Below are positions 8,523 to 55,790 of a stretch of DNA of 64,000 bases, one piece after another. Origin of the DNA: Patescibacteria group bacterium (GTDB lineage: Bacteria > Patescibacteriota > Patescibacteriia > UBA9570 > JAHJKD01). Where the stretch lies: the NCBI GenBank assembly GCA_041660885.1, contig JBAZVM010000007.1, forward strand, positions 17,896 to 81,895, written 5' to 3'. The notes beneath the pieces are model-generated. The model was not told where the DNA came from and made no database searches. It worked only from the letters and a program-made list of their open reading frames with translations. Both the position numbers and the translations under genes were made by a program. Each line of letters starts with the position of its first letter. The stretch's first letter is position 1.

Positions 8523-8561
8523 AAACTAAAAGAAGACTTGTTTCCAGCCAAACAAGTCTTC
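8523..8561 (-). terminator. intrinsic terminator of the GC-rich 2-gene unit
   Basis: On the minus strand GAAGACTTGTTT-ggctgg-AAACAAGTCTTC is followed by TTTTAGTTTTAG. It lies 35 nt after the 8596 stop. Confidence 0.7.
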
Positions 8562-8595
8562 GTTCCCCAAGCGCAGCATGCTGTCGCATCCGCAC

Positions 8596-9636
8596 TCAGG
8601 GCTTCTCCGCCTTCTTTTCGCGCACGTTGTCGTAGTGCGCTACCAGAAGGGGAATAAACCCGAGGTGAGCCGCGATCTCCGCGAACTCACCCATGTCTTG
8701 GAAACCATTGCGACCATTCCCGTTGGCCGCAACAGTAACCACCGCTTCCCACACACAACCCGGAAGCCAGTTGGCCTTATAACCGGGAAGGGCGGGACTA
8801 AAAGCGAACCCAGGAAGAGAGATGGCCACCTTGTACAAGTGGCACCCTCGAGCTCGAACGAGTTCGCACAGCCAGCTTGGAATCTGGGGGTGCGTATCGT
8901 CGAGCACTTTGGTGCCCTTCGCAAGATGTGGCACACAACTCTCGAATTGTTCACCTTCGGCGGTGAGCACGACGACCACCTGGCATTTCTCCAACCGGCT
9001 GGGGTCGGAGGTGCGAGTGACGCCGCCGTCGTACTGTTCTTCTTTGAAACGCTGATCGAGGGCTACGATGTTCTGGTAGCCCAACTCCTTGAGCCGCTCG
9101 ATCAACCGAGAACCAGAGTAACCACCCCCACCAACCACCGCCAGTTGTTTCATGCGGTGGATCTCGTGGCGTGCATATACCATGTGCACGCCCTGAGAAA
9201 TGGTGTGGATGGTTCCTCGAACGCCGTCCACGAATGGATGGGCGTTCATATCGTGTCCGTGCCGCGCCAAAATACCCGGCATGCGCCCGGCAATGGCCAC
9301 CTTGGTCTCCGAAGAGATTCGGGCAGCCGTATACCGAAGCGCACCGTACAGACGCGCCGCCTCAGAGGGCTCCGCCTCCGCCTGCTGTGTGGAGATCATT
9401 GTCCCGAAGTAGAGACCTCCCCCGATGAACCCAAGCGGGAACACCGTTGGAAAGATCCTTTTCGCGATGCCGATCGTCCACGCAGGGAAGTAGCCCTTTG
9501 TGTCTTCGGGTGTACCGGGGTACACCACGAAGATGAAGGGCCACTGCCGCTGTCGGAAGATGTGCCACCCCAGCAGGAGGGTGACCATCTGTACGAACCG
9601 GAACATGGTCCGGTTCAGACGCCGTAGCGTCCTCAT
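8596..9636 (-). CDS. NAD(P)-binding oxidoreductase, acyl-ACP-reductase / shikimate-DH-like family (GC-rich island 1)
   Basis: 346 aa. Rossmann motif VVGGGGYSGSRLIERLKELGY. N-terminal FIFVVYPGTPEDTKGYFP and the overall layout resemble cyanobacterial acyl-ACP reductase-type proteins (from memory, not searched). Hydrophobic N-terminus. SD GGAGGTG lies 4 nt before the ATG. The antisense 349-aa track ORF is rejected. Confidence 0.6.
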   Translation of the reverse strand: MRTLRRLNRTMFRFVQMVTLLLGWHIFRQRQWPFIFVVYPGTPEDTKGYFPAWTIGIAKRIFPTVFPLGFIGGGLYFGTMISTQQAEAEPSEAARLYGALRYTAARISSETKVAIAGRMPGILARHGHDMNAHPFVDGVRGTIHTISQGVHMVYARHEIHRMKQLAVVGGGGYSGSRLIERLKELGYQNIVALDQRFKEEQYDGGVTRTSDPSRLEKCQVVVVLTAEGEQFESCVPHLAKGTKVLDDTHPQIPSWLCELVRARGCHLYKVAISLPGFAFSPALPGYKANWLPGCVWEAVVTVAANGNGRNGFQDMGEFAEIAAHLGFIPLLVAHYDNVREKKAEKP

Positions 9637-9673
9637 GGTGCACCTCCAATGTTGTGGGTAGCGAGTTGAGACA

Positions 9674-9835
9674 TCACGTGATGGCGAGCATCACCGCAAT
9701 GAACGCCGTAACCGCCAGCAATGCAAGCACTGCCACCGGCCAGACGCCAAGCAATGGTGCCCACCAGGGGAGATTCCGCATCTCCTCCAACTTATCACGG
9801 ATGTCCGTGGTTTCATCCGGCGACAACGGGGCCAT
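9674..9835 (-). CDS. small membrane protein (53 aa), first gene of GC-rich island 1
   Basis: Below the track size cut-off. My translation is MAPLSPDETTDIRDKLEEMRNLPWWAPLLGVWPVAVLALLAVTAFIAVMLAIT. SD AAGGAGG lies 5 nt upstream. There is one C-terminal TM helix. The stop is 38 nt before the next start. Confidence 0.5.
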   Translation of the reverse strand: MAPLSPDETTDIRDKLEEMRNLPWWAPLLGVWPVAVLALLAVTAFIAVMLAIT

Positions 9836-10030
9836 GATGCCCTCCTTCTTTTTGCGCTACTTACTCCTTGTTGATTTCCTGTTTCTTCGTCTTGGGAACG
9901 AACTTTGAAACAGGAAGTGGGTTGAATTGCCTCCCAAGGGATAGGGAGGGCTTCTCTGTGAACTATTTAAATGTACTATCCCACAGTGAAAAAGCGGTAT
10001 TGAAGCACTACAAAAATTTCTTTGTATAAC

Positions 10031-10053
10031 AAAAAAGCCCGCCTGAACGGGCT
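10031..10053 (-). terminator. intrinsic terminator-like hairpin directly after a promoter
   Basis: Minus strand AGCCCG-ttcagg-CGGGCT followed by TTTTTTG. It starts 2 nt after the putative -10 at 10055-10060. Confidence 0.45.
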
Positions 10054-10054
10054 C

Positions 10055-10083
10055 ACCATAACGATATTTTTTATTTTTGTCAA
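10055..10083 (-). promoter_or_regulatory. sigma70-like promoter facing island 1
   Basis: Minus strand TTGACA (10083-10078), 17-nt spacer, TATGGT (10060-10055). Confidence 0.35.
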
Positions 10084-10113
10084 GTCCTATCCCCTAAATA
10101 TGTGAATAACAAT

Positions 10114-10140
10114 AAAAGACGCCATTTTTCGCGTCTTTTT
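10114..10140. terminator. bidirectional terminator-like hairpin after island 2 gene
   Basis: AAAAGACGC-cattttt c-GCGTCTTTT, with an A-run and a T-run on either side. Confidence 0.55.
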
Positions 10141-10232
10141 ATCATATATGAAAATATTTTATTTATGTATGCGACGGAGGGCTCCAGCTGTGCTGTTGTG
10201 AAACCCTCCGTCTGTGCGCCGCGCATGGCTTC

Positions 10233-10436
10233 CTACCTCCCGAAGAGGTAGCTGAGGCTCGACCCGCCCAACGCGAGCCCGAGAACCACGTTGCCGATGC
10301 TCAGCACGATGTGTCCCTCCGCCATGAGGAATCCCCCAGCGAAGACCGATCCGATGCCACCGATCACACCGAGAATCGCTCCCACGATGGCGATCAGGAC
10401 CATCATCAACCCCTTTGTCGACATTTGGAACGTCAA
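10233..10436 (-). CDS. small glycine-zipper membrane protein (GC-rich island 2)
   Basis: 67 aa: MTFQMSTKGLMMVLIAIVGAILGVIGGIGSVFAGGFL...LGLALGG. Two predicted TM helices rich in GxxxG. TTG start with SD GGAGGTG 4 nt upstream; an alternative ATG is at 10424. Confidence 0.55.
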   Translation of the reverse strand: MTFQMSTKGLMMVLIAIVGAILGVIGGIGSVFAGGFLMAEGHIVLSIGNVVLGLALGGSSLSYLFGR

Positions 10437-10495
10437 GAAACACCTCCGGTTGAAACCGGGGGCATCATATCAATAAATTTGATTTTGTCAAGACT

Positions 10496-11923
10496 TTATG
10501 GTGTATTACTTTTATTTCCGAATTCTCTCTTTACCCTTGCCACAGCCTCTTCATAGCACAAAACTCTAGCTAAAGCACTATTGATTTGCTTGCTAGTATT
10601 CTTTAATAGGATGTTTTCTTTTTCGGAAAAGATATCATTATTATTTTTAGGACCAATTAAAATAAACCCATTAATAGCATCAACTTGTGTTAAACCGGCA
10701 ATGGCTGTTATATTTTCTTTTTGCATAAATTTATTCATTCTTCCTAAAATATCAGCGTTTTCTTTGTTTACGGAAATATAAGGAATCTCTTGTTTCAAAA
10801 GTAACGATCTATCTTCTTTAAAATATTCTAGAAATAATTCTTGTGTTTCTTTATCTAAAACCTTTTTACCGGCTGTTGGATAAAAATAGCCCAAATCTGG
10901 TATAGAAAAATCTCTTACTATTATATCTACTTTTTCTATTTTTAATCGTTCTTTAATAAAATCTATACATTGTTCCAAGAGATCCTTTAGATAAGTGGTA
11001 TAGCTAATATTGGTATTGAATTCTTCAATGTGTTTGGATAAATCTATTTCTTCTTTATTAATATATTTATTAGTTATTCGCAAAATAATTTTATTTAGAA
11101 TAGGCAGAAAAATAATTAGAAGAACCACTTCAATAATAACAATATCATTTATATTATAATTCTTTGTGGAAAAATATCGATTTAAAAGCAAGACCAAAGA
11201 AATTATTACTCCAGCTATTCCGCAAAAAGTTATCAGATGAAAAACGCTTTTTTTTAAAACTACCCTTATATCCATAAAACGGTAGCGCGTAATGGCATAA
11301 GCGGTTATTAATATGTAAGCAGAAGCTAAAATATTACCAATGGGCGGAACGGGTATGTTATACCAATATAAATAATTGGTAATTCCCCCGCCGTAACCGA
11401 TAAAGGTTCCGATAATTAAATATTTTATCTGAATCTTTTTGATATCTTTTGCTGTTTTGTATTCTTTAAATAAAAGATAAACCGTATAAGCAAGGCAAGC
11501 CAACCACAGTATTAAAAACGGATGATACATAATCCCCGGTTTGGGCCAAAAGGTGAAACTATATACCGTCTCCACTTTAGCGACAAACAAATTGGTAAAA
11601 TCAAAGCATAAAAAAACCAATCCTAAAGAATAAGAAATTATCAATAAAAGCTTCTTTTTATAATTAAGAAAGACGGTAATAAAATGCAGGTATGCCACGG
11701 GAATAAAAATCGCGCCGGCCATTAAGCATCTGCACCAAAATAAAGCACCGGATTCCGTAGATGCTATTTGCCAGAAAAAATAGCAAATACTCCAGATAAA
11801 AATAAAAAAACAAAACAAAAAATGATAAATTTTAATATTCTTTTTCGCCTTTATTAAAATTAATATGGCCAATATCGAACTGGTTAAAGCGTTTACTAAA
11901 GCTGCTATAGCAAAATATATCAT
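10496..11923 (-). CDS. 7TM receptor domain + GAF-like protein without kinase module
   Basis: 475 aa. The N-terminal multi-TM region aligns by eye with the N-terminus of the 5583..8450 kinase (FWCRCLMAGAIFIPVAYLHF vs FWCRVLYIAATFTASPFVYF). The C-terminus resembles the end of a GAF domain. No HisKA or HATPase. Confidence 0.6.
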   Translation of the reverse strand: MIYFAIAALVNALTSSILAILILIKAKKNIKIYHFLFCFFIFIWSICYFFWQIASTESGALFWCRCLMAGAIFIPVAYLHFITVFLNYKKKLLLIISYSLGLVFLCFDFTNLFVAKVETVYSFTFWPKPGIMYHPFLILWLACLAYTVYLLFKEYKTAKDIKKIQIKYLIIGTFIGYGGGITNYLYWYNIPVPPIGNILASAYILITAYAITRYRFMDIRVVLKKSVFHLITFCGIAGVIISLVLLLNRYFSTKNYNINDIVIIEVVLLIIFLPILNKIILRITNKYINKEEIDLSKHIEEFNTNISYTTYLKDLLEQCIDFIKERLKIEKVDIIVRDFSIPDLGYFYPTAGKKVLDKETQELFLEYFKEDRSLLLKQEIPYISVNKENADILGRMNKFMQKENITAIAGLTQVDAINGFILIGPKNNNDIFSEKENILLKNTSKQINSALARVLCYEEAVARVKREFGNKSNTP

Positions 11924-12234
11924 ATATTTTTTTTAGAATAAAAATCAGCGTAAAATCATAGTGGAAAACACCTTCAACAATAGCCGGTATTCTACCAAGA
12001 CAGCCATTCCCCATTCAACTGCCTTGATGTTTTCGTAACCTCCTTTACCCTGAGCCCATTCTTCTTTGGCTGATTGCCAAAAAGTTGTCGAAGGGTTTTT
12101 TAGGAGCGCTAGATTTTACGCTGTTTTTACTCTTAAACCATTCTCGCAGTTTAAGAGCGGAAGGGCAGAAGAGGCGGGTTTCATGCCCTCTTGGCCTAAC
12201 ACTACCCATTATACCCCATTATGGTCAATAGACT

Positions 12235-12326
12235 TTTAGAGACGGCGCTAAACAAAAAGCCAGCCTTTTTGGGCTAACTTTAGCCAAAAAACTTATGTGG
12301 ATAACTTATTTAGCGACGGCGCTAAA
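12235..12326 (+). promoter_or_regulatory. pair of 7-4-7 palindromes TTTAG(A/C)G-ACGG-CGCTAAA (locus 1)
   Basis: Sites at 12235-12252 (TTTAGAGACGGCGCTAAA) and 12309-12326 (TTTAGCGACGGCGCTAAA, perfect 7-bp arms), 74 bp apart. The second overlaps the last codons of 12306..12665. Confidence 0.6.
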
Positions 12327-12665
12327 CTTATGTAATTTCTCTACTTTATTATCTAAACGCTGTAACCAATCAACCACAAAAACATGATCTTCATCAATTT
12401 TATTTACTCTTATTGCTATTGCATCGACAGCGCTCACTAAGTCATTAAACTCACTTCGATAAACCATATTCTGTTTAATTTCTGAAATTTCTTCAGTATT
12501 TTTTAATACAGTATTAATTAAACGATCGAACTTTTTATCATGATCTCCTAACTTAATATTAATCTGGTCGAACTTTTTATCATGTTCTTCTAGTTTACTG
12601 TTGATCAGATCGAACTTTTTATCATGTTCGTCCAGCTTTAATAATATTTTATCAATTTTTGTCAT
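12306..12665 (-). CDS. coiled-coil protein with three 14-aa tandem repeats (EHDKKFDxINxKLx)
   Basis: I place the start at the internal Met MTKIDKILLKLDEHDKKF (ATG 12665-12663). The track N-terminal extension runs through the ssb terminator hairpin. A 42-nt DNA period is visible at 12526/12568/12610. Confidence 0.5.
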   Translation of the reverse strand: MTKIDKILLKLDEHDKKFDLINSKLEEHDKKFDQINIKLGDHDKKFDRLINTVLKNTEEISEIKQNMVYRSEFNDLVSAVDAIAIRVNKIDEDHVFVVDWLQRLDNKVEKLHKFSAVAK

Positions 12666-12722
12666 AGGTCTATATATTTTATATTTAAAGATTATTGCTG
12701 TCAAAGATAGGAATTTATCCCG

Positions 12723-12754
12723 GAATGTCCCCCGCATTAATGCGGGGGACATTC
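12723..12754. terminator. perfect 16+16 palindrome after ssb
   Basis: GAATGTCCCCCGCATT|AATGCGGGGGACATTC, 7 nt downstream of the ssb stop. No clear U-run. Confidence 0.5.
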
Positions 12755-12760
12755 ATCCGG

Positions 12761-13183
12761 CTAAAACGGATTTTCCGTGGTAGCCGGGCTTTCTTCAATA
12801 ATGGTGGCTTCTTCCGCGACTTTTTGCGCGTCTTCGCGCTTGGTGGCGCCGCCGAGCATAATCATGTTGCTGGCCACGACATCAGTGAAATACTTTTTCT
12901 TGCCATCTTTGCCTTCGTAGCTGTTGTTGTTCAAACGGCCTTCAAAATACACTTTGTCCCCTTTTTTTAAATAAGCGGCCATGTTTTGGCCCAGTTTGTT
13001 CCAGCCAATGACGGTGTGAAAATCCGCTTTGCTTTTCTTTTCTCCGCTTTTTTGGTCTTTCCACTTGTGGTTGGTGGCCAGGGTTACTTTTGTTACGCTT
13101 TGTCCGGAAGTTAAATTCTTGTTTTCCGGTTCTCGGGCAATGTTGCCGATAAGAATTACTTTGTTTAGATCCATAAGATTCAT
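12761..13183 (-). CDS. ssb: single-stranded DNA-binding protein
   Basis: 140 aa. OB-fold N-terminus LNKVILIGNIAREPE...FHTVIGWNKLGQNMAAYLKKGDKVYFEGRL and an acidic tail. Confidence 0.85.
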   Translation of the reverse strand: MNLMDLNKVILIGNIAREPENKNLTSGQSVTKVTLATNHKWKDQKSGEKKSKADFHTVIGWNKLGQNMAAYLKKGDKVYFEGRLNNNSYEGKDGKKKYFTDVVASNMIMLGGATKREDAQKVAEEATIIEESPATTENPF

Positions 13184-13486
13184 TTAATTATTAATATTTA
13201 AATGGGTAATTGTTGGAAGCCCGGGCTAACAAAATTAATGTTTAGCAAAAAGAAAATCATAGGCGAGCTCCCCTTGCTAGAGAAAATCAGCCCGAGCTTT
13301 TTTAAGTTGTCAACAGGTTTTTTGAGACGGCTCCCTACTTGTCGTATCTCAAATTGCCTTGTTTTGATGCGGAGGAAAACTTCTTCCGCAATTTTTTTCA
13401 AAAAAAACAGAGACGTCCCTAAAAAGGGAACGCCTCTATTTTCTGAAATAATCTTAGCAAAAATTAAATGGATGTCAAATATTGAA

Positions 13487-14041
13487 TCATTTATTCCTCC
13501 ACTTAAAATAATCTTGATCCTCTTCCATGATCTTTTTAAGATTATCGCGGATGAAATCAGCTTTGTTTATCTTGCCATGCTGGCTTTTCCAGTTTAAATA
13601 GTTCTCTAAGGACTCTGTCATGCGTAAAGTGTATTTAATATTAGGTACTTCGGCGATCTGCAGAGTGGGCTTGATGCTTTTTACGAATTTATAAAGCGTG
13701 TCTTTTAAATTATTCTTGCAATAACTCTTTATTTGAATACTACGCGGCACATTTTTACGGCGTAAATACATAAGCAAAGGCCTGGGCGGATTGCTCTTTT
13801 CAAAGAAGCATAGGGTTTCCTTCTGAAGCAAAATAGCTTGAGCCAATAAATAATTTATCTGCGCGTCGGCTTTGGTGATTTCCAATAATAAGCCGTCTAC
13901 GCGTTCCAGCGGATTAATATTAATCTGATCCCAAGTATCCATGGGGCCCGCGTCCTGCGGTTTTTGCCATAGCTGCACTCCGCTTTTCACTAAGAGGGTG
14001 GCGGCTTCGGTTTTTTGCGGATCTTGCAGATAAATAATCAT
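13487..14041 (-). CDS. hypothetical protein (C-terminal ribbon-helix-helix-like segment)
   Basis: 184 aa. Its start codon abuts the stop of the upstream gene 14043..14999. No confident family assignment. Confidence 0.4.
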   Translation of the reverse strand: MIIYLQDPQKTEAATLLVKSGVQLWQKPQDAGPMDTWDQININPLERVDGLLLEITKADAQINYLLAQAILLQKETLCFFEKSNPPRPLLMYLRRKNVPRSIQIKSYCKNNLKDTLYKFVKSIKPTLQIAEVPNIKYTLRMTESLENYLNWKSQHGKINKADFIRDNLKKIMEEDQDYFKWRNK

Positions 14042-14042
14042 A

Positions 14043-14999
14043 TTAAAATTCTCCGGCTAAATTCTGCCCCATTAATTTTTTTACCTTCTTAATATCGCTG
14101 GTTTGCCCCAAAACCCAAACAAACTTGGCTACGGCTGTTTCATAATTGATTCCGGAGCAAATAAAAACATTATCCGATTTTATTTCCGTGCCCTGGGAAT
14201 AAACGCATACGGGAATATGCTTCGGTAAATTGTAGCGGCTGGGGTAAAGTTGTTCTTGAAATCCACGAATAAAAATACCGGCGTAATCTTTATTAGCCAA
14301 ATCAGCTTCGCTTTCCGGGTGTACATCCAATATTTTAACGCGGCTGATAAATTTACCGTTGAATTCCGGATCATTCTCATGCCTTTTTTTCACGTAATTA
14401 TTTAGGTGAATGCCAAATTGGATCCTGGCTAAAGAATGCTTTTGAAAAAAAGAAAGATATTTTCCCGGATCATCCCAATTGAATTTAGCTTGCGTAGCGC
14501 GCACCAAATGATTACCAATAACCACGCCCACTTCGGAATTATCCATGGTGGCGATCTGCACGGCGTTGATGAGCCCGGATTTAATAGCTAAAGTTTCGAA
14601 TTCTCCGAAACTAATGGGCTTTTTTTTCTGTTGAAAAAAAATTTGCTCGTTTTCCTCAGGCAAGGCCGGGCCAGTAAATATAATGGGCTTGCCCGTGTTC
14701 TGCGCCATAAAAGCCAGCAAAGAACTGGTGTAAACGATATTATCTATGCTATGCGTTATTACAAAGCCGTCGTATTTTTTATAATTATCTTTGATAATAG
14801 TTGTTAGCCTGCCAGCCAAATCCCAAGGCACATCCGCACCCGCGCCATGCCATACAAAATACGGTTCCACTTGCGCCATCATTTGCAGCTCAAAGGAATT
14901 GGAAATCCACTTTTTTAACATGGCCAAATTAAAATCCGGCCCAAAGGTGGTGCCTCCGGCGTAGAGCAAACAGATTTTTTTCTGGCTTAAAGATTGCAT
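14043..14999 (-). CDS. L-asparaginase/GatD-like domain protein
   Basis: 318 aa. KICLLYAGGTTFG resembles the asparaginase GGT(I/L)xG threonine motif, and ITHSIDNIVYTSSLLAF resembles HGTDTMEETA. Confidence 0.5.
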   Translation of the reverse strand: MQSLSQKKICLLYAGGTTFGPDFNLAMLKKWISNSFELQMMAQVEPYFVWHGAGADVPWDLAGRLTTIIKDNYKKYDGFVITHSIDNIVYTSSLLAFMAQNTGKPIIFTGPALPEENEQIFFQQKKKPISFGEFETLAIKSGLINAVQIATMDNSEVGVVIGNHLVRATQAKFNWDDPGKYLSFFQKHSLARIQFGIHLNNYVKKRHENDPEFNGKFISRVKILDVHPESEADLANKDYAGIFIRGFQEQLYPSRYNLPKHIPVCVYSQGTEIKSDNVFICSGINYETAVAKFVWVLGQTSDIKKVKKLMGQNLAGEF

Positions 15000-15033
15000 A
15001 TTTCTCTTATTTTTTTCAATTCTTCCACAGCTT

Positions 15034-15127
15034 TTTTAAGACGGCGCTATTATTTATAATCTCTATTTTAACCAATATATACAAGCTTTTTCTTAAATAT
15101 TTGTTTATTTTTAGAGACGGCGCTGGT
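15034..15127 (+). promoter_or_regulatory. pair of 7-4-7 palindromes (locus 2), second abuts the -35 of the cassette promoter
   Basis: Sites at 15034-15051 (TTTTAAGACGGCGCTATT) and 15110-15127 (TTTAGAGACGGCGCTGGT). A third half-like copy TTGACGGCTCT lies at 15131-15141. Confidence 0.55.
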
Positions 15128-15130
15128 TGA

Positions 15131-15159
15131 TTGACGGCTCTATAAAATCATCATATCAT
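15131..15159 (+). promoter_or_regulatory. sigma70-like promoter of GC-rich cassette A
   Basis: TTGACG (15131-15136), 17-nt spacer, TATCAT (15154-15159), about 70 nt before the ATG at 15231. Confidence 0.4.
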
Positions 15160-15230
15160 CCCTTTGTCTTTCTAGTCCAGATGTCCTGGGCAAGAAAGCG
15201 TTATCACACGCAACTCAAGGAAACACGCCA

Positions 15231-15917
15231 ATGTTGCGCTCGTTCTTCGACACCATCATCTGCCTCGCGCTCCTCAGCGCCTGCGCCCCGACCGACACCG
15301 ACAACCAGGAGCCTCTCGAGGACACCGACAACAACGAGTACACCTACACCAACGAGCCGGCCATCGAGTCCTACCCGCTCAACCTCTCGGACAACGACTA
15401 CGGCCCCGCCCTCGACGAGGAGGATCTCTACCTCATCGAGCAGGTCTACGGCGACATGTCCAAGGAGGAGTGGGAGATGCTCCTCGACGACCTCGCAGAG
15501 CTGACCGAGGAAGAGCTGCAGGAGTGGCTGGCCATCCTCGCCGAGGATCTCAGCGAAAACTCCACCATGAAAATTGCCTCCTGCTCCGGCTACTACGGCA
15601 GCCGCATCGGCTACGGCTGGTTCCCCTACTCGAGCACCTCCACCTACCGCAACCTCTGGACCACCAACTGCTACTTCCGCGGCGCGCAGTGCGGCAAGGA
15701 CTACATCGCAAGCTTCTGGATGGGCCCGGACTACCGTGGCGACCAGAGCGACCTCGTGGCTTATGCCTCAACCACCTCGGCACGGCTCTATCTGTTCTAC
15801 AGAGGAGGATACTCGGGGGAAATCTATCAGGGCGGATCGTACTACAACTTTTACGCCTGCTGGCCATGGGAAATTGGCGGTCTCATCGACAAGGCCCAGC
15901 TCAAGCAGATCTACTGA
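15231..15917 (+). CDS. lipoprotein, acidic linker + Cys/Tyr/Gly-rich C-terminal domain (GC-rich island 3)
   Basis: 228 aa with lipobox LLSAC. Codons end almost exclusively in C/G. SD-like AAGGAAA lies 8 nt upstream. Overlapping alternate-frame track ORFs are rejected. Confidence 0.7.
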   Translation: MLRSFFDTIICLALLSACAPTDTDNQEPLEDTDNNEYTYTNEPAIESYPLNLSDNDYGPALDEEDLYLIEQVYGDMSKEEWEMLLDDLAELTEEELQEWLAILAEDLSENSTMKIASCSGYYGSRIGYGWFPYSSTSTYRNLWTTNCYFRGAQCGKDYIASFWMGPDYRGDQSDLVAYASTTSARLYLFYRGGYSGEIYQGGSYYNFYACWPWEIGGLIDKAQLKQIY

Positions 15918-15937
15918 TGATTCTGAAGATCAACGAG

Positions 15938-15991
15938 AAACGCAGGGGTAAAGAGAAGTGCTTAAACTTTACTTCTTTGCCTCTGCGTTCC
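15938..15991 (+). terminator. long bulged hairpin with conserved loop, copy A
   Basis: AAACGCAGGGGTAAAGAGAAGTGCTTAAACTTTACTTCTTTGCCTCTGCGTTCC. Near-identical to copy B (21924-21978) and related to copy C (23008-23056). Confidence 0.55.
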
Positions 15992-16012
15992 AATCATTTG
16001 ATAATAGATAGA

Positions 16013-16059
16013 TTGACATTATTTATAATTTTGTTAGCATACCTATGTATTCTAGGTAT
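16013..16059 (+). promoter_or_regulatory. promoter + putative PadR operator (copy 1)
   Basis: TTGACA (16013-18), 16 nt, TAGCAT (16035-40), overlapped by the inverted repeat ATACCTA-n7-TAGGTAT (16039-16059). About 50 nt match the padR upstream region with 4 differences. Confidence 0.55.
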
Positions 16060-16080
16060 TAATAAATAATTAAAATTATT

Positions 16081-17025
16081 ATGCACAAAGAAATTAAAAA
16101 AGATGAACGGAAGGATGGAAGCATAAAAAAAATATTTAAAATTTTATTAAATATTTTTTCCATTGCCCTCATTTTTTATTGTTTATTGGCAACAATTTTA
16201 ATCTGGTTGCTTGATAAACAAATTATCTCTTCAGTAATTAACATTACTAAAACATCCCCTGCTTTTGTCATTATTATGCCAAAAATGCTAATTGAATTGT
16301 TATTTTTAATTATACCGCTAACTATCTTTCAATTATTTGATATTGTTATATGGTTCTGGTTTATAGGCATAATTCTGTTTATTATACTTGGTTTAACCTG
16401 CTTTTCTTTCATTAAAACCATTATAAAGAATAAAAAAGAGAATAAATTAACATTCATCAATTTTCCTTGGATTAAATTAACTTTGGCGGTCTGGTTAATG
16501 AGCATTTTATTTTTTGGGTCAACGGGAACACCATCTCTAAGATGGAGCCAGCCGGTTATAAAAGTCTCTCGAAATATAGAAGTAACTCAATTTGGTCCTA
16601 TATATAATTTTGTTAAATATACTAATCGTGATGACGGCTTTTTCAAATATTCAATCAATATAAATATAGATAATAAATTTAGTGTGCAGCAGATAAAAAA
16701 TTCCAATAAAATTTCTTTATATAATATTATTAATGGATCAAAACTTAAGAAAAATAATAATTCTACGGCAATAGCAGAATATTCGGGAGATGAAACATTG
16801 CCAGCCGACATTAAGTGCTATGCCAATAATAATACTCAAAATAATTATATATACCTAAAAAACAGATGCAATGAATTATGGTATAAAGAAAAACTAATAT
16901 TTAAAACTAAAGAATGGCCTGTTTGGGTAAAACGAGTCGAAATAAATAATGATAATACCAAGCTTTTAATTCATATTTATCCCGGATATGTTACTCCCGA
17001 ATCTGTATTTTTAGTCACACTATAA
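16081..17025 (+). CDS. membrane protein (N-terminal TM bundle + Asn-rich extracytoplasmic domain)
   Basis: 314 aa, very AT-rich, with several predicted TM helices. Confidence 0.55.
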   Translation: MHKEIKKDERKDGSIKKIFKILLNIFSIALIFYCLLATILIWLLDKQIISSVINITKTSPAFVIIMPKMLIELLFLIIPLTIFQLFDIVIWFWFIGIILFIILGLTCFSFIKTIIKNKKENKLTFINFPWIKLTLAVWLMSILFFGSTGTPSLRWSQPVIKVSRNIEVTQFGPIYNFVKYTNRDDGFFKYSININIDNKFSVQQIKNSNKISLYNIINGSKLKKNNNSTAIAEYSGDETLPADIKCYANNNTQNNYIYLKNRCNELWYKEKLIFKTKEWPVWVKRVEINNDNTKLLIHIYPGYVTPESVFLVTL

Positions 17026-17032
17026 TTGTAAT

Positions 17033-17368: not shown

Positions 17369-17375
17369 TATTAAT

Positions 17376-17422: not shown

Positions 17423-17444
17423 TATCAAATAATTAAGCAAAAAT

Positions 17445-17762: not shown

Positions 17763-17767
17763 TTTTT

Positions 17768-20088: not shown

Positions 20089-20103
20089 TTAATTAATATA
20101 TTT

Positions 20104-20720: not shown

Positions 20721-20800
20721 TATTGCGACGGCGCTAAAAAATATTAGTTAATAATTATGGATAAACATGAAATAATCTACTTTTTAGCGACGGCTCTGAA
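20721..20800 (+). promoter_or_regulatory. pair of 7-4-7 palindromes (locus 3), second abuts the -35 of the cassette promoter
   Basis: Sites at 20721-20738 (TATTGCGACGGCGCTAAA) and 20783-20800 (TTTAGCGACGGCTCTGAA), 62 bp apart. Confidence 0.55.
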
Positions 20801-20831: not shown

Positions 20832-21002
20832 ATAAGCAACGAATCGACAATCTAAAAGGAAAGCTCGAGGGAAAATCGGGCAAGATCCCTACCATCTTGT
20901 TTACCCGATTCTCCCTGGGGCAACCTGGGATGCTTCTGCTCCACTCTCCGGCTGTTCGGAGGGAATGGGTATTAGCATCTAGTTCATTGGAGCGAACGAA
21001 CC

Positions 21003-21899
21003 TTGAAAACGTACATCGCCATCCTCCTGAGCCTCGCGCTCACGGGCTGCGTGCCCGAGAGCACCGACGACAACACCGAGCTCGCGTTCGACACGGCCTA
21101 CGACAACACCGAGAGCGTCGCCGACGGCAACTACACCGTCACGATCTCGGAAGACGAGGCCAAGCGCAGCGCCATGTTCGGCCTCGACGAGGACATCTAC
21201 TCAGCCACTTCTACCATCGTGGGCCCCCTCCAGTACCGCAACGAGTGGATTCCCGCGTACGAGGTCACGGTCAACGGTGGAGACCACATCATCCTCCGCT
21301 ACATCGATGGGAACGACGGCACCCTGCTCCAGGACATCGACGCCTACCACGAGATCCCGACCATGAACGAGGTCGATCTGCCGGAAGACGTCATGGCGTC
21401 CTACTACACGTCCTGCCCGTCCGGCTGGCCCCTGTGCATCGCCAACCCGTCGTCCATCACCTTCTACAGCCAGAACGACCCGAGCTGGAAGTATGACCTC
21501 CTCGGCAACAGCAGCACTTCCACCATCGGCGGATACGGCTGCCTGCTCTCGAGCTACGCCATGGAGATCTGCAAGAACGGGCACGGGTGCTACACGCCCA
21601 AGCAGCTGAACGCCTACAAGACCTGCTTCTCCGGCGATCTCGTGATCAACTCCTGCATCGCCAGCAAGGTCGGTGCCTCCTACTCCACCATCAGCCTGGC
21701 CTCGCTCTGGGGCAAGATCGCCTCCGGTGTTCCCGTGGTGGTCTACGGCAAGTCCTCCTGCATGGGCGGCAGCTACCACGCCCAGATGATCTGGGGCCAC
21801 GACGGCTCCCGCTACTGGACCAAGGACCCCTGGTACGACTGGACGAACCAGGACCAGGCCATGTGCGTGTCGTCGCCGAGCTATCGCGTCATCCACTAG
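21003..21899 (+). CDS. lipoprotein with PepSY-like domain and C-terminal papain-fold (C39-like/CHAP-like) cysteine peptidase domain (GC-rich island 4)
   Basis: 298 aa, TTG start, lipobox LALTGC. PepSY-like segment AYEVTVNGGDHIILRYIDGNDGTLL. Motif YSQNDPSWKY...IGGYGCLLSSYAM (candidate Cys) and later GGSYHAQMIWGHDG (candidate His). Codons end almost exclusively in C/G. Confidence 0.65.
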   Translation: MKTYIAILLSLALTGCVPESTDDNTELAFDTAYDNTESVADGNYTVTISEDEAKRSAMFGLDEDIYSATSTIVGPLQYRNEWIPAYEVTVNGGDHIILRYIDGNDGTLLQDIDAYHEIPTMNEVDLPEDVMASYYTSCPSGWPLCIANPSSITFYSQNDPSWKYDLLGNSSTSTIGGYGCLLSSYAMEICKNGHGCYTPKQLNAYKTCFSGDLVINSCIASKVGASYSTISLASLWGKIASGVPVVVYGKSSCMGGSYHAQMIWGHDGSRYWTKDPWYDWTNQDQAMCVSSPSYRVIH

Positions 21900-21923
21900 A
21901 GATGCACGATATGTTCGCTCACA

Positions 21924-21978
21924 AAACGCAGGGGCAAAGGAAAGTGCTTAAAACTTTACTCCTTTGCCTCTGCGTTCC
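21924..21978 (+). terminator. long bulged hairpin with conserved loop, copy B
   Basis: AAACGCAGGGGCAAAGGAAAGTGCTTAAAACTTTACTCCTTTGCCTCTGCGTTCC. Confidence 0.55.
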
Positions 21979-22008
21979 GACTCTATTTATCAATAATTAA
22001 ATAAAGCT

Positions 22009-22998: not shown

Positions 22999-23007
22999 AA
23001 TTTAAAT

Positions 23008-23056
23008 AAAAAAGAGGCAACGGGAAGTGCTTAAACTTTACTCCATTGCCTCTTTT
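23008..23056. terminator. hairpin copy C, bidirectional terminator between convergent genes
   Basis: AAAAAGAGGCAACGGGAAGTGCTTAAACTTTACTCCATTGCCTCTTTTT. It has the same loop as copies A and B and is flanked by an A-run and a T-run. Confidence 0.65.
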
Positions 23057-23071
23057 TCGTATTCTAGCAAA

Positions 23072-48909: not shown

Positions 48910-48945
48910 CCTCTCCCCTGACCCCTCTCCATGTCTGGAGAGGGG
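48910..48945 (+). repeat. CCTCTCCCC hairpin repeat, copy 2
   Basis: cctctcccctgacccctctccatgtctggagagggg. Confidence 0.8.
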
Positions 48946-48961
48946 TAAATATTTTATTAAA

Positions 48962-49984
48962 TTATTTTTTAATACCACATTGAACTAATAACTGGTCTAA
49001 TTCTTCTTGTGACTGTGGTAATTTATATCCTGTCATTCCAAGTATAGCTCTTTTAAGTGCGACTGTTTCAAATCCCTGTGCAAAATTATCTATTAATCCT
49101 TGTTGAAAACATTCATTGCTAATTTGACGAAATTGTCTGATATCTTTAATACTACCAATAATAATCCTTATAATTCGAGTAAAAATATCGTGCGAAATAA
49201 CATCGGCAAAATTTTCTTTGAAATAATGGAAAATGTTATCTTCCAACAATGCTCTGACTACCAATAAATCATCGATGGGCTTATGATATTTATCTCTTCT
49301 ATTTAATTCATCACCATAACTATAAATATATGGGCTGTTAGAACTAAATTTTTTTGAAACATTATAATCGCTTTCTATCTTGTTCGCTATATCAGTATGA
49401 TAAGAACCTAAAGCAACTAACACTTTAACTACTGGATGACTTTTATATTTTGGATCTTTACCAATAATAACTGGCAATTCTTCTTCAATCTTACTTCTAA
49501 TATAGCTTTCTCTATGCCGATTATAATCTGAATTTATTGATACTGCTTGTTTTCTTAAAGCAATCGCCTCATCAAAATCTCCATAAATAAATTCATTCAT
49601 TGCTCTATTTTCTTCATCACTTCCATCACTTTTATTAACTAATTCATGTTCTTTCGGTACATCAAAAAAATAAATGTCTTTGTTTGAATTATACAATACT
49701 GCATCTTCTTGCTCCTTAGCATCTTTTGGCCCCCTGCTTTCCTCAATATTTTTTGGTTTCTTTTCTCCTTTGGCAATTTCTCGCAAATAGTCTAATTCTT
49801 CTTGCATCCAACCATAAGCCTCTGGAATATAAATATCAGCCTGTGCGATTAACTTTTGCAGACAAGCAAAATCTTCCATACTACGATGCGCGGAAAAAAA
49901 GAAAGTAATTTCAATCCTCGGCTCGCCTTCTCTGCGTTCCTGATTTGGTCTTATTCCAGGTGTTTTTGATTCTATTGTACCCAT
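48962..49984 (-). CDS. hypothetical protein inserted between dnaK and dnaJ (possible TraB/PrgY/Tiki-like fold)
   Basis: 340 aa. FFFSAHRSMEDFACLQKLIAQADIYIPEAYGW loosely resembles the TraB-family GTAHVS...PD-V-VEL pattern. This is a weak, by-eye match. Confidence 0.5.
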   Translation of the reverse strand: MGTIESKTPGIRPNQERREGEPRIEITFFFSAHRSMEDFACLQKLIAQADIYIPEAYGWMQEELDYLREIAKGEKKPKNIEESRGPKDAKEQEDAVLYNSNKDIYFFDVPKEHELVNKSDGSDEENRAMNEFIYGDFDEAIALRKQAVSINSDYNRHRESYIRSKIEEELPVIIGKDPKYKSHPVVKVLVALGSYHTDIANKIESDYNVSKKFSSNSPYIYSYGDELNRRDKYHKPIDDLLVVRALLEDNIFHYFKENFADVISHDIFTRIIRIIIGSIKDIRQFRQISNECFQQGLIDNFAQGFETVALKRAILGMTGYKLPQSQEELDQLLVQCGIKK

Positions 49985-52258: not shown

Positions 52259-52636
52259 TTATTTCGCCTTAATCTTGATTGTTTTCTTTTTGGCTTGCGG
52301 CGCCTTGGGAATGGTTATTTTCAATAAACCTTCCTTGTATTCGGCTTCCGCTTTTTCGCCATCCACCGCTACGGGCAAAGCCACAGAGCGATGAAAGCCG
52401 CCATAGCGCACTTCCTTGCGGTAATAATTCTTTTCGTCCACTTCGCTCTTTTGTTCGGATTCCCCTTCAATGGTTAACACATCGTTTTCAATGGATATGT
52501 TTACTTTGTTCGGGTCCATCTTCACAACCGGGGTTTCTACCACTACCGCGTCCTTGGTTTGGTAAATATCCAAGGCCGGAGTAAAGTTTTCAAATTCATC
52601 CAAATTCATCATTGGTGACCATGGAATTAATCTCAT
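52259..52636 (-). CDS. Hsp20/alpha-crystallin family small heat-shock protein
   Basis: 125 aa. Alpha-crystallin domain ending GLLKITIPK. Confidence 0.85.
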   Translation of the reverse strand: MRLIPWSPMMNLDEFENFTPALDIYQTKDAVVVETPVVKMDPNKVNISIENDVLTIEGESEQKSEVDEKNYYRKEVRYGGFHRSVALPVAVDGEKAEAEYKEGLLKITIPKAPQAKKKTIKIKAK

Positions 52637-53891: not shown

Positions 53892-53928
53892 CCTCTCCCC
53901 CTAACCCCTCTCCATGTCTGGAGAGGGG
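53892..53928 (+). repeat. CCTCTCCCC hairpin repeat, copy 5
   Basis: cctctccccctaacccctctccatgtctggagagggg. Confidence 0.8.
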
Positions 53929-54020
53929 AGATTGTTATATATAAGATGATGATAAATTTTGGGGAGATGCGCGAAACGGTAGTCGTTTTGAACCGCGCGC
54001 ATCTCTTGTCCCCTCCTCAG

Positions 54021-54326
54021 TCATTCCTTCGGAATCCAGCCGTAGTCTGCGACTCGCGGCGTGTAGTAGGGACCCGCATCCGGATCCCAACACTCGGCCG
54101 CAAACTGGCCGCTTCTAGAGGGGTACAGATGAACCTGACCCCACATCCGGCGCGGCTGGAAGAAATCTGGAAAAAGGGTGACTTCCCCTTCCATCCAGAC
54201 TGCGAATCCTCGTTCTGTGGTCGTATCGAACTCGACCACACAAGCATTCGCATCTTCGTTATAGCCCCGAAGCTCCTGAGGCTTGGGGCAGCCTACTAAG
54301 AACAAAAGCACCAAAAAAAGTCTCAA
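54021..54326 (-). CDS. small lipoprotein (GC-rich island 5)
   Basis: 101 aa. TTG start with SD AGAGGTGGA just upstream. Lipobox FLVGC. GC-rich mature part. Confidence 0.55.
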   Translation of the reverse strand: MRLFLVLLFLVGCPKPQELRGYNEDANACVVEFDTTTERGFAVWMEGEVTLFPDFFQPRRMWGQVHLYPSRSGQFAAECWDPDAGPYYTPRVADYGWIPKE

Positions 54327-54383
54327 GATCCACCTCTCTCTGGTTGAAGTACGCTAACAATGTATAAGCTTATTTCACTTAAG

Positions 54384-55061
54384 TCAATCCTGATTTTTTA
54401 TGGAAAAAGGATTGAATTTGGTATGTCTATCGTAATAGTCTTCTTGCTCTTGTTTCTTTAGAAAGCCGACAATTTTGTAAGTGATCGGCGTAAATATAGT
54501 TTCCAAGCCGACTTTAAAAATATAATTGGAAATTAGAACCGTCAGCAATAAAGAAGCGGGCAAAACACCCCAAAAGGCTACGAGTACGAAAATCGCGGTA
54601 TCAAACCCCTCGCCTATTATTGTTGAGCCGATGGTGCGCAGCCATAAAAACTTGCCTTGAGTTTTTATTTTTAATTTCGCCAGAGTAAAAGAATTAGTGA
54701 ACTCGCCAACCAAATAAGCTATTAAACTCGCGGCTACTATTCTTGGAGTTAAACCTAATATAGCGTTATACGCTTCTTGATTCGGCCAATCCGCGGCAGG
54801 AGGTAGCTTGCCTACGATAATGATCGTAAGGGACATTAACAAGGCGCAAGCAAAGCCCGTCCAGATCACTCTACGCGAACGGGCATATCCGTAAACTTCG
54901 GTTAAAATATCGCCGAAAATATAACTTAAGGGAAATAAAAGCGTTCCGCCATCAAAAGTAAACGGCCCGAATAACATTATTTTCGTTGAAACGATATTGG
55001 AAATCAATAACACGGCCACGAACAGCCCAAGAATAATATCGAAATATTTATATGGTTTCAT
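54384..55061 (-). CDS. yhhQ: queuosine-precursor transporter (YhhQ/VUT family)
   Basis: 225 aa, 6 TM helices. Typical LFPLSYIFGDILTEVYGY and RTIGSTIIGEGFDT motifs. Confidence 0.8.
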   Translation of the reverse strand: MKPYKYFDIILGLFVAVLLISNIVSTKIMLFGPFTFDGGTLLFPLSYIFGDILTEVYGYARSRRVIWTGFACALLMSLTIIIVGKLPPAADWPNQEAYNAILGLTPRIVAASLIAYLVGEFTNSFTLAKLKIKTQGKFLWLRTIGSTIIGEGFDTAIFVLVAFWGVLPASLLLTVLISNYIFKVGLETIFTPITYKIVGFLKKQEQEDYYDRHTKFNPFSIKNQD

Positions 55062-55065
55062 AAAG

Positions 55066-55137
55066 CACCGGGTACGGGAATCGGACCCGTGTTATCTGGC
55101 TGAGAACCAGACGTCCTAGCCACTAGACGAACCCGGC
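55066..55137 (-). tRNA. tRNA-Glu (anticodon CUC), copy 1, atypical T-loop
   Basis: GCCGGGTTCGTCTAGTGGCTAGGACGTCTGGTTCTCAGCCAGATAACACGGGTCCGATTCCCGTACCCGGTG. The cloverleaf folds. The T-loop TCCGATT has C at position 55. The first acceptor pair is G-U. Confidence 0.7.
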
Positions 55138-55234
55138 ATATTAATAATTGTTATACTCGATAAACAAACTCGTCTCTTCTTCATCTACACTATTTTACGA
55201 TGATCAGTTCCCGTCCAACTGATCATCGTACCTC

Positions 55235-55630
55235 CTACAACGACTCTACGTTGTACATCGGCGCTCTACTGGGATCTTGAAAAAATTGTTTACAACTCAG
55301 AGGTGTAATGTACAATTCTACTCTCCGAGTTTGCCCCTCCATACTCGGTATCCATGTACATTCACCCTTGGGTCTCATTTGTTTGAATTCCGCGTTGCAC
55401 ATCGCGAGCGCTTCATTATAAGCTTCTTTGGATTTAGCCATTTTGTCCGACGCGACGAGCAAACAACATTGACCATTCTTAGGGCAATAGTAATACGGAT
55501 TCTTACCGCCCGTTGAAAACGATGGGGATGACGGTGTTTCCTCGCCGTAGATACCCGCCAAGAAAAGGAACAACACGACCACCAACATAAAAACACAAAA
55601 GCCAATAAACGTCACCCAGTTCTGCCGCAT
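55235..55630 (-). CDS. membrane-anchored Cys-rich exported protein (island 6)
   Basis: I place the start at MRQNWVTFIGF (ATG 55630-55628, SD GAGGA 4 nt upstream); an alternative ATG is at 55657. The track start 55774 would read through the tRNA. One TM helix and 6 Cys in the ectodomain. Confidence 0.5.
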   Translation of the reverse strand: MRQNWVTFIGFCVFMLVVVLFLFLAGIYGEETPSSPSFSTGGKNPYYYCPKNGQCCLLVASDKMAKSKEAYNEALAMCNAEFKQMRPKGECTWIPSMEGQTRRVELYITPLSCKQFFQDPSRAPMYNVESL

Positions 55631-55662
55631 AGTATCCTCGTTTTTTATTGGCATCATTGCCG

Positions 55663-55734
55663 CACCGAATATGGGAATCGAACCCATGCTATCTGGCTGA
55701 GAACCAGACGTCCTAGCCACTAGACGAACCCGGC
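55663..55734 (-). tRNA. tRNA-Glu (anticodon CUC), copy 2
   Basis: The 5' 45 nt are identical to copy 1. The 3' part is TAGCATGGGTTCGATTCCCATATTCGGTG, with a canonical T-loop, but the acceptor stem has three G-U pairs. Confidence 0.7.
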
Positions 55735-55790
55735 ATATAAGAGGCGCATTGTTATGCGCCTCAAAAACAAACAATTTTATTAAATATATA

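Follow-up and report, generated by a model that had tools for sequence, protein, structure and literature searches.

A 64 kb stretch of DNA from a metagenome-assembled genome (MAG) of the Patescibacteria, or candidate phyla radiation (CPR), hereafter the window, contains gene-sized GC-rich islands whose genes carry Shine–Dalgarno (SD) sites and encode, for the most part, lipoproteins and small membrane proteins. The evidence assembled here inclines us, with modest confidence, to regard these islands as a native, SD-led and GC-rich gene class that has been inherited vertically within a sub-clade of Patescibacteria and is held at its composition by selection, and not as a set of recent insertions. 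Single genes of this class stay at a GC content of about 0.9 at third codon positions (GC3) in a reduced genome of 41 % GC while their synonymous sites turn over. In comparisons within the window the backbone set consists of 53 genes, and loci from other assemblies are given as L numbers.

Composition, translation signals and products

Within a window that is 41.3 % GC overall, a 300-nt profile shows blocks of 56–63 % GC at 8700–9900, 10200–10500, 15300–15900, 21000–21900 and 54000–54300. As intervals, islands one to five have GC contents of 0.58, 0.59, 0.59, 0.61 and 0.56, compared with 0.41 for the window, and these five bear out the greater part of a preliminary description of this DNA, which had listed six GC-rich islands; the sixth, 55235–55660, has a GC content of 0.45 and, because the GC3 of its gene (0.53) lies inside the backbone range, is not compositionally distinct. 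Backbone GC3 has a mean of 0.42 (standard deviation 0.08, range 0.20–0.58, 53 genes), and every island gene apart from 55235–55630 exceeds the backbone maximum of 0.58, with values of 0.60–0.94 (Table 1). Whether island GC3 falls within the normal spread of the genome had been proposed as a check, and it does so for that one gene alone. The hand counts of G+C given in the same description (41/60 and 12/60) proved exact on recount, and its placing of the compositional breaks at gene boundaries is sound, as GC declines within about 30–60 nt of the island stop codons and the 5' leaders are intermediate, at about 0.5.

Two codon styles can be told apart, much as had been proposed. In the two strongest islands, 15231–15917 and 21003–21899, 0.91–0.95 of codons ending in a pyrimidine (NNY) end in C, compared with 0.36 in the backbone, and 0.85–0.90 of lysine, glutamate and glutamine (K/E/Q) codons end in G, compared with 0.25; GAG, AAG and CAG make up 0.81–1.00 of their own codon pairs in the islands and 0.21–0.33 in the backbone. 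Both genes are otherwise backbone-like, with a GC content at first codon positions (GC1) of 0.48–0.52 and a content of glycine, alanine, arginine and proline (GARP) of 0.21 versus 0.195. The second style, that of island 1 and 54021–54326, consists of a moderate GC elevation at every codon position together with GARP-rich proteins, and at the four-fold sites of island 1 G is at least as frequent as C. The backbone includes eno, pgk, gap, dnaK, dnaJ, grpE, hrcA, hsp20, ssb, dnaX, several histidine kinases and an mraZ–rsmH–ftsL–PBP–murF cluster (PBP, penicillin-binding protein). A third compositional class, with GC3 of 0.20–0.35 compared with 0.40–0.58 for housekeeping genes, lies at 10496–11923, 16081–17368, 20104–20703, 22009–22998 and 48962–49984; its products are mostly membrane or secreted proteins without assigned function, and they evolve fast, with 58–72 % identity between relatives versus 78–97 % for housekeeping genes.

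The coupling of this composition to SD sites is close. SD strength was taken as the energy of the duplex that the site forms with the anti-SD. By this measure each of the seven island genes is at −5.4 kcal/mol or lower, while only 6/53 backbone genes reach −6 kcal/mol or lower (Mann–Whitney p=1e-4), and across seven related loci an SD site precedes 14/14 GC-elevated genes versus 7/71 others (Fisher p=3e-11). These figures, which come from the systematic scan that the preliminary description had called for, agree with its claim of strong SD sites in the island genes and scarce ones in the backbone. Around their starts, island genes have folding energies of −9.5 to −21 kcal/mol, more stable than the −8.6 kcal/mol that the backbone has on average. 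Selection for extra mRNA structure was considered and rejected, native minimum free energies being no different from those of synonymous-codon shuffles (z=+1.7 and −1.0). The backbone genes that do have an SD site include hsp20 and dnaX. The strongest backbone SD (AGGAGGTG, −12.9 kcal/mol) is that of the Hsp20 gene at 52259–52636, which hints that SD-led initiation might be reserved for conditionally expressed genes.

As to the products, none of the 53 backbone proteins has a lipobox at its N-terminus, and a lipobox is present in those of 15231–15917 (LSAC), 21003–21899 (LTGC) and 54021–54326 (LVGC). With the lipobox defined as [LVI][ASTVI][GAS]C at the end of an N-terminal signal peptide, none is present in the products of 8596–9636, 9674–9835, 10233–10436 and 55235–55630. 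The last three, all small, have transmembrane (TM)-like segments, but the 346-aa product of 8596–9636 has neither a lipobox nor any 19-residue Kyte–Doolittle segment of at least 1.6, so the statement that the islands encode exported or membrane proteins only, although right for the others, is not fully correct. Scans of the island products against Pfam, NCBIfam and PADLOC gave no match above threshold.

Relatives and the fate of the GC excess

The closest relatives, L001 and L016, are from one Logan run (SRR22388163), and their backbone proteins are 78–97 % identical to those of the window. At the window's own loci they carry the 228-aa lipoprotein gene (1827–2510 in L001, GC3 0.86), the gene for the 298-aa C39-like protein (GC3 0.89–0.91) and island 1, and they hold one additional GC-rich lipoprotein gene. 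In all, islands recur at matching loci in L001, L016, L012 (SRR21359985), L005 (JGI 3300013121), L006 (JGI 3300028032), L008, L013 and L015. The more distant L005, L006 and L008 each have a C39-like gene followed by an AT-rich DUF6242-like gene, with GC3 of the C39-like gene of 0.65 versus a backbone of 0.34 in L005, 0.86 versus 0.22 in L006, and 0.59 versus 0.27 in L008, and the short contigs L013 and L015 have islands with GC3 of 0.96 and 0.80 beside AT-rich or moderate-GC flanks. The 5' and 3' non-coding parts of the islands are 82–85 % identical between the window and L001. No islands lie near murF in L010 and L011 (62–66 % MurF identity), which confines the trait to a sub-clade. Of the marks of recent acquisition, atypical composition is present, and absence or relocation in close relatives is not, as the islands are syntenic in L001, L016, L005, L006 and L008. 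Orthologues of native composition, which had been named as a sign against foreign surface-gene islands, were looked for in the relatives, and the orthologues are still GC-rich. An ancient foreign origin of the cargo is plausible as its original source.

Island 1 adds an indication of age. The family of its 346-aa protein is present in other CPR (Wildermuthbacteria and Parcubacteria), and the gene is syntenic with a seven-transmembrane (7TM) histidine kinase gene in L016 and L017, which marks it as an old resident of CPR genomes. The SD site of this gene is kept in relatives, as GAGGTG in L016 and GGAGGTG in L017. The neighbouring 53-aa gene has its orthologue in L016 at 300–458, and the promoter-hairpin element at 10035–10083, which may be a leader terminator, an attenuator or a very short transcript, is conserved nearly base for base in L016 (about 40–95).

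Whether the composition is a relic or is maintained was assessed by comparing the window with L001/L016. At four-fold sites, the window and L001 differ by 0.46 in the backbone (63 % of saturation) and by 0.37 in the two strong islands (68 %); island turnover thus matches that of the backbone, which fits common descent since the split, with no refreshing afterwards. The island orthologues have 63–73 % protein identity and are more diverged than the backbone. At two-fold sites, by comparison, NNY positions differ by 0.34 in the backbone and 0.09 in the islands, and K/E/Q positions by 0.30 and 0.15. Decay from an all-C ancestor under the backbone process would by now have left a C fraction at NNY sites of 0.66 (bootstrap 0.59–0.71), and the observed values are 0.94 in the window and 0.93 in L001 (n=95); from an all-G ancestor, K/E/Q sites would have a G fraction of 0.65 (0.58–0.71), and the observed values are 0.85 and 0.80 (n=40). 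Under a two-state model, the backbone divergence at NNY sites would leave each lineage with only about half of any initial excess. Because the observed G/C is far above the expected decay, a GC-favouring fixation bias is called for, with implied odds in favour of G/C relative to the backbone of about 29-fold at NNY and 12-fold at K/E/Q sites, and because amelioration has failed, the composition is not the fading signature of a recent transfer. The backbone-like GC1 and amino-acid composition, together with the GC drop at the stop codon, confine the bias to coding sequence. To judge from these comparisons, then, a fixation bias towards G/C that is confined to the island coding sequences maintains them. 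The share of C<->G exchanges among four-fold differences is 48 % in the islands versus 19 % in the backbone, and this free interchange points to GC content itself as the target and not to tRNA-matched codons. Over the longer distance from the window to L006, where a neighbouring protein is 31 % and the C39-like protein 56 % identical and four-fold sites are saturated, both C39-like genes still have GC3 of at least 0.86.

Expression modules, cargo and neighbouring features

The features of the islands and of their surroundings are given in Table 1. The GC-rich genes are preceded by two kinds of 5' module. Type A combines GACGGCKCT repeats, one of them across the −35 box, with a leader that is conserved, an SD site and a reading frame whose first codons read MLRSFF. 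It stands ahead of the C39-like gene in L006, of the 228-aa gene in both the window and L001, and of an M23 peptidase gene that in L012 occupies the locus of the 228-aa gene. In the window the repeat at 15133 is the one that overlaps the −35 box (TTGACGgctct), and GACGGCKCT has seven matches there versus 0.33 expected by chance. The protein encoded by the L012 cargo gene carries a Peptidase_M23 domain. At the asparaginase locus, one and the same 5' module is followed by this gene in L012 and, in both the window and L001, by the 228-aa gene. With one 5' module ahead of unrelated cargo at a fixed locus, the loci behave as fixed expression sites at which cargo has occasionally been exchanged during the history of the clade. 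In L008, two different GC-elevated lipoprotein genes (1090–1311 and 2587–2808) have an identical 200 nt upstream and an identical first 22 nt of coding sequence, pointing to recent duplication or gene conversion of a 5' module.

Table 1. Features of the islands and associated elements (window coordinates unless a relative is named)
Feature	Position	Strand	Details
CDS (coding sequence), 346 aa, Rossmann-like NAD(P)-binding	8596..9636	−	GC 0.59, GC3 0.70; GARP-rich
SD GGAGGTG	9641..9647	−	4 nt ahead of ATG 9636; dG −10.6
CDS, 53 aa, single-pass membrane protein	9674..9835	−	GC3 0.74; SD AAGGAGG 9841-9847
Sigma-70-like promoter TTGACA-17-TATGGT, then at once GC hairpin and T run	10035..10083	−	about 200 nt upstream of 53-aa gene
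CDS, 67 aa, two-TM membrane protein	10233..10436	−	TTG start; GC3 0.84; SD GGAGGTG 10441-10447
Promoter TTGACA-16-TATGAT of 67-aa gene	10464-10491	−	
Promoter/operator module	15040..15159	+	GACGGCKCT repeats at 15040, 15116, 15133; −10 box TATCAT
Conserved 5' leader	15160..15230	+	TGTCTTTC..GTCCAGA..TCCTGGGC..AAAGAAAG; weak SD AAGGA 15217-15221
CDS, 228 aa, lipoprotein	15231..15917	+	signal MLRSFFDTIICLALLSAC, Cys-rich mature part; GC 0.60, GC3 0.88
3' RNA hairpin	15930..16000	+	21-bp stem, loop GCUUAAAC; covariance match 84 bits
GACGGCKCT motif pair, upstream of 21003 gene	20727..20797	+	motifs at 20727 and 20789
Structured 5' leader	20855..21002	+	long hairpin, GNRA-tetraloop hairpin CCUGGGGCAACCUGGG 20914-20929, second long hairpin; z=−5.0; SD GGAG 20989-20992
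CDS, 298 aa, lipoprotein (LALTGC)	21003..21899	+	TTG start; PepSY-like beta domain, then C39/papain-like cysteine peptidase domain; GC 0.63, GC3 0.94
3' RNA hairpin, same family as 15930-16000	21916..21987	+	84.5 bits
Third hairpin copy, after AT-rich DUF6242-like gene	22999..23069	+	A run and T run flanking; 57.6 bits
tRNA-Gln(CUG)	37998-38070		adjoins dnaX
CDS, 101 aa, lipoprotein (FLVGC)	54021..54326	−	TTG start; GC 0.55, GC3 0.60 (marginal, just over backbone range); GARP-rich; SD GAGGTG 54331-54336
tRNA-Glu(CUC), copy A	55065..55137	−	
CDS, 131 aa, N-terminal TM or signal anchor	55235..55630	−	GC3 0.53 (inside backbone range); weak SD
tRNA-Glu(CUC), copy B	55662..55734	−	diverged paralogue, compensatory T-arm differences
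GNRA hairpin sites	window 20914-20929; L001 3241-3256, 5360-5375; L005 5759-5774, 7424-7439, 9911-9926		

Type B is a structured leader with a GNRA-tetraloop hairpin that shows compensatory changes between the window (CCUGGGGCAACCUGGG) and L005 (CCUGAGGUAACUCAGG). The hairpin was found in six leaders only, each belonging to a GC-rich lipoprotein gene of the window, L001 or L005, and is a candidate for a new cis-regulatory RNA. Compared with Rfam at gathering and at permissive thresholds, the leaders and hairpins gave only tRNAs and chance matches. At the 3' side stands a terminator hairpin of about 50 nt, in which six pairs have compensatory changes across seven copies from four genomes, and its G-U pairs on the sense strand identify it as an RNA structure on the sense transcript. 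Because it also follows AT-rich genes, once in the window and, by covariance model, at 7460–7518 in L012, it is the lineage's own terminator and not specific to islands; a reading of it as an island-specific 3' recombination site was rejected for the same reason.

Several repeats occur near these modules. A near-palindrome, TTAGCGACGGCGCTAA, with GACGGCKCT as its core, occurs in pairs 62–76 nt apart and is probably a transcription-factor site; in L005 its sites are at 208/283, 984/1059, 5585/5659 and 9722/9796. One window pair (12241–12249/12315–12323) has no island beside it and falls where a gene for a coiled-coil repeat protein, 12306–12752, has its 3' end; homologues of this gene are flanked by the same pairs in L005. 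Coiled-coil proteins of HDKKFD-like repeats recur near islands and GACGGCGCT motif pairs in three genomes, the genes being 12306–12752 in the window (with 42-nt repeats at 12526–12651), 592–966 in L005, and 481–834 and 1250–1624 in L006. A 61-nt repeat with a promoter and the palindrome ACATACCTATGTATTCTAGGTAT is present at 16013–16073 and 17376–17436 as copies that are 89 % identical; they precede an AT-rich membrane-protein gene and a regulator gene (17445–17762) that looks PadR-type by sequence appearance, and the repeat is likely the operator of that regulator. The inverted repeat CCCCTCTCC-N7-GGAGAGGGG makes up a second family of repeated hairpins, with six matches versus 0.23 expected and three copies, at 5537–5561, 48922–48945 and 53905–53928, next to pgk, dnaJ and hrcA, within or edging intergenic regions.

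The two tRNA-Glu(CUC) genes are 597 nt apart, on either side of 55235–55630, and no other island sits between tRNAs. Both tRNA-Glu(CUC) and tRNA-Gln(CUG) read G-ending codons only, and in the backbone such codons are the less used ones (GAG 0.21). The pairing of tRNA-Gln(CUG) with dnaX is also found in an AT-rich relative, L010, which has GC3 of 0.2–0.3 and no island in the 21 kb examined, and a tRNA-based explanation of the islands was considered weak for that reason.

The cargo itself belongs to rare families. That of the 228-aa protein is tiny, with 5 representatives among 1.84 billion proteins and a Cys-rich conserved region; a lipobox is present in three of the four other representatives, and the fourth is without a signal peptide. 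The C39-like family has 20 proteins at E <= 0.01 among 5.8 billion, 16 of which form the close family. Every member whose sequence runs from the true start is a lipoprotein, and Cys180 and His259 are invariant across 15 sequences. Pfam PF13529 (Peptidase_C39_2) is matched in several homologues, and the 298-aa window protein itself falls under Pfam thresholds. In its AlphaFold model (mean predicted local distance difference test score, pLDDT, of 75) a PepSY-like beta domain is followed by a papain-like domain. The best PDB match of the model is the pseudomurein endoisopeptidase PeiR (E=4e-4), with further matches to PCAT1 C39 and a papain-like toxin (both at E of about 0.02–0.04) and to a CdiA-CT toxin. 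An AT-rich DUF6242-like gene lies directly 3' of the C39-like gene in five genomes. The common theme of the island products is that of exported hydrolases, probably acting on the cell wall of the bacterium itself or on that of a host.

Only one high-GC genome with a C39-like homologue was found, a Myxococcota MAG of 72 % GC (JAKLKC010000051.1, L007/L002), in which the gene (L002 6001–7059) encodes a protein 51–56 % identical to the CPR copies. Its GC content is 0.66, and it lies in a lower-GC patch (0.61–0.68 versus 0.73–0.78) with an AbiEi-like gene nearby, so that it looks foreign there. This would hint that the CPR clade and Myxococcota have exchanged genes. In the star-like C39 tree the Myxococcota copy is about as far from each CPR copy as these are from one another, and, as the tree holds one Myxococcota sequence, the direction of transfer cannot be read from it. 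A search with the C39 alignment profile returned two loci in genome contigs and one, already known, in metagenome contigs. Viral contigs gave nothing by C39 protein alignment or by hairpin loop, and a phage vector is therefore not supported.

Competing explanations and known systems

In the favoured reading, that of a native class held by selection, each island gene would begin with a lineage-specific sigma-70 promoter, which at the two strong islands bears GACGGCKCT repeats, and would continue with a structured 5' leader carrying the SD site and with a GC-rich reading frame that encodes an exported lipoprotein or small membrane protein, to end in a terminator hairpin that at the two strong islands is of the lineage's own family. 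The force would be selection on the GC content of the mRNA or of the coding DNA. GC-rich, structured starts would be unable to use the A/U-rich, SD-independent initiation of the backbone and would consequently need an SD site, and the set would amount to a channel of translation under its own control, serving surface or effector proteins. The preliminary description had offered both repeated foreign capture and a distinct translation regime for a surface-protein set; the latter fits better, as GC-rich coding sequence and SD sites occur together in the window and in the seven related loci.

A more speculative extension, which we hold to be possible though doubtful, has two translation channels, an SD-independent one for the A/T-ending majority and a GC-rich, SD-dependent one in which selection on mRNA composition would keep the swappable, exported effector lipoproteins, with the GNRA-hairpin and GACGGC-promoter leaders switching the effector set as a block, for example on host contact. 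In an extreme and unlikely variant, the genes would be adapted to expression in a GC-rich host that receives them by DNA transfer. At 40497–43070 the window encodes a type IV coupling protein that is VirD4/TraG/TrwB-like, and this is consistent with the type IV secretion system that has been reported for Patescibacteria (PMC12102498).

A number of observations weigh against the favoured reading. The composition of island 1 is not clearly maintained, as the window and L016 have GC3 values of 0.70 and 0.59 for it, the differences being mostly exchanges between G/C and A/T, and in L017 it is barely over the backbone. For the gene at 54021–54326 the evidence comes from the window itself. The contrast is weaker in L005 and L008 (GC3 0.51–0.65) and absent in L014 (0.53 versus 0.51), so that maintenance is not uniform across the clade, and the presence of AT-rich lipoprotein genes in relatives (L001 2640–3182, L005 6691–7023, L011 13488–14537) means that the regime does not cover all lipoproteins. 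The quantitative test of amelioration comprises one close genome pair and takes backbone two-fold sites as neutral, and the SD energies presume an anti-SD in this organism's own 16S rRNA. Finally, the cause of the bias may be selection or biased gene conversion, selection being what we infer, and free C<->G exchange is equally expected from GC-biased gene conversion.

That last process, acting at recombination hot spots with the 5' modules and 3' hairpins as homology arms and without benefit to the cell, is the first rival to be weighed, and we consider it unlikely. It would explain why G and C are favoured alike with many swaps between them, why different genes share 5' modules (down to the identical 200 nt and 22 nt in L008), why cargo is swapped at a fixed locus, and why the leaders too are GC-elevated, to about 0.5. 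Against this, the excess is concentrated at third positions and goes no further than the stop codon, whereas any conversion tract would take in the adjacent hairpin too, and GC1 is not raised in the two strongest islands. The mature domains of the cassettes are unrelated, so that paralogues cannot convert over the whole gene, and the window and L001 show no sign of recent exchange.

Recurrent capture from high-GC donors, such as a Myxococcota-like host, with donor composition refreshed before it decays, strikes us as likewise unlikely. The codon usage does resemble that of a high-GC genome, a 56 %-identical homologue exists in the 72 % GC Myxococcota MAG, cargo differs behind one 5' module at the asparaginase locus (228-aa versus M23 in L012), and in a star-like tree the Myxococcota copy is as near to each CPR copy as these are to one another. 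To that extent the earlier proposal of repeated foreign capture retains something, namely cargo exchange behind the 5' module and one Myxococcota homologue. Its remainder is at odds with the syntenic GC-rich orthologues, the native promoters, leaders and terminators, and the lack of compositional drift; the window and L001 orthologues have diverged in step with the backbone, without refreshing, yet keep a GC3 of 0.86–0.94. Moreover, of nine genomic contexts examined for the C39-like family, eight have a backbone of low or moderate GC, with clear GC contrast in seven, and it is the Myxococcota copy that sits in a lower-GC patch by an AbiEi-like gene. The main leucine codon is CTC in the islands (0.73) and CTG in the Myxococcota locus, the islands match the backbone in GC1 and in amino-acid composition, and there is no integrase or transposase among the scanned window open reading frames (ORFs).

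Ordinary translational selection, by which the islands would be the most highly expressed genes and G/C-ending codons optimal, is very unlikely. In its favour, dnaK, gap and ssb, which are likely to be highly expressed, have C at 0.47 of NNY sites, compared with 0.36 in the backbone on average and 0.23 in the AT-rich membrane class, and the window has one tRNA-Gln(CUG) gene and two tRNA-Glu(CUC) genes. However, the same three genes use A-ending K/E/Q codons (G 0.27) and are without SD sites, so that the islands are not the extreme end of a backbone trend. C<->G swaps, which change the tRNA used, are tolerated nevertheless, and L010 has tRNA-Gln(CUG) with its low GC3 and no island in the stretch examined. 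An assembly chimera or contamination with GC-rich reads of another organism, for which the sharp compositional breaks alone would speak, can be put aside with near certainty, since at least eight independent assemblies, made from different samples by different pipelines, have the same islands at the same loci with synteny conserved, and since the GC-rich coding sequences directly adjoin non-coding modules that are specific to the lineage.

Atypical GC content and codon usage are routinely read as signs of recent horizontal gene transfer (HGT) and as a clock, and for a gene class of this kind that inference would fail. The coupling of GC-rich coding sequence to SD sites would offer a testable form of translational control in CPR, whose gene regulation is barely known; the papain-like and M23 lipoproteins are candidates for cell-wall remodelling or host attack, and as regulatory elements the promoter repeats and the conserved leaders are new candidates. 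Searches of the literature brought up no account of Patescibacteria gene sets that are GC-rich or SD-led. The related known kinds are compositional islands, codon-defined gene classes and GC-rich lipoprotein loci.

Compositionally atypical islands from horizontal transfer reportedly undergo amelioration, according to the model of Lawrence and Ochman. The window islands share with them gene-sized blocks of distinct GC and codon usage, surface or secreted cargo, and a likely exchange of cargo among lineages; they differ in being syntenic and GC-rich in relatives, in having host-type signals, in having neither mobility genes nor flanking repeats, and in showing no synonymous amelioration. The vls/vlsE locus of Borrelia is a GC-rich, GC-skewed surface-lipoprotein locus in a genome of roughly 28 % GC. 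Here the likeness lies in a lipoprotein GC far over that of the genome, kept across species as the sequence diverges, and in a link to recombination or cassettes. Unlike vls, the window and the related loci have no visible silent-cassette array (repeat searches over 8000–23000 found no silent copies of island coding sequences), the products are not a single variable antigen but enzymes whose folds are unrelated, and the excess falls on third positions, with a bias to C on the coding strand.

Integron cassettes likewise have a single ORF followed by a conserved imperfect hairpin, with different cargo in the same slot. In contrast, the islands are stand-alone genes with their own promoters, their hairpin has G-U pairs, lacks RYYYAAC/GTTRRRY cores and is found after AT-rich genes as well, and there is no intI among the scanned window ORFs. 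In Streptomyces, bldA and the TTA codon provide codon-dependent regulation, and both systems have a functional gene class marked by codons that are rare elsewhere in the genome, with control through decoding as a possibility; in the islands, however, the shift to G/C-ending codons covers the whole gene and not a single rare codon, and C<->G interchange argues against dependence on one tRNA. Lastly, there are SD-poor genomes with few SD-led genes, such as rpsU in Bacteroidota. As in those genomes, most genes of the window are without an SD site and a few with a strong one are set apart for translational control, whereas here the SD set is coupled to GC-rich coding sequences and exported proteins, and the taxon is the Patescibacteria.

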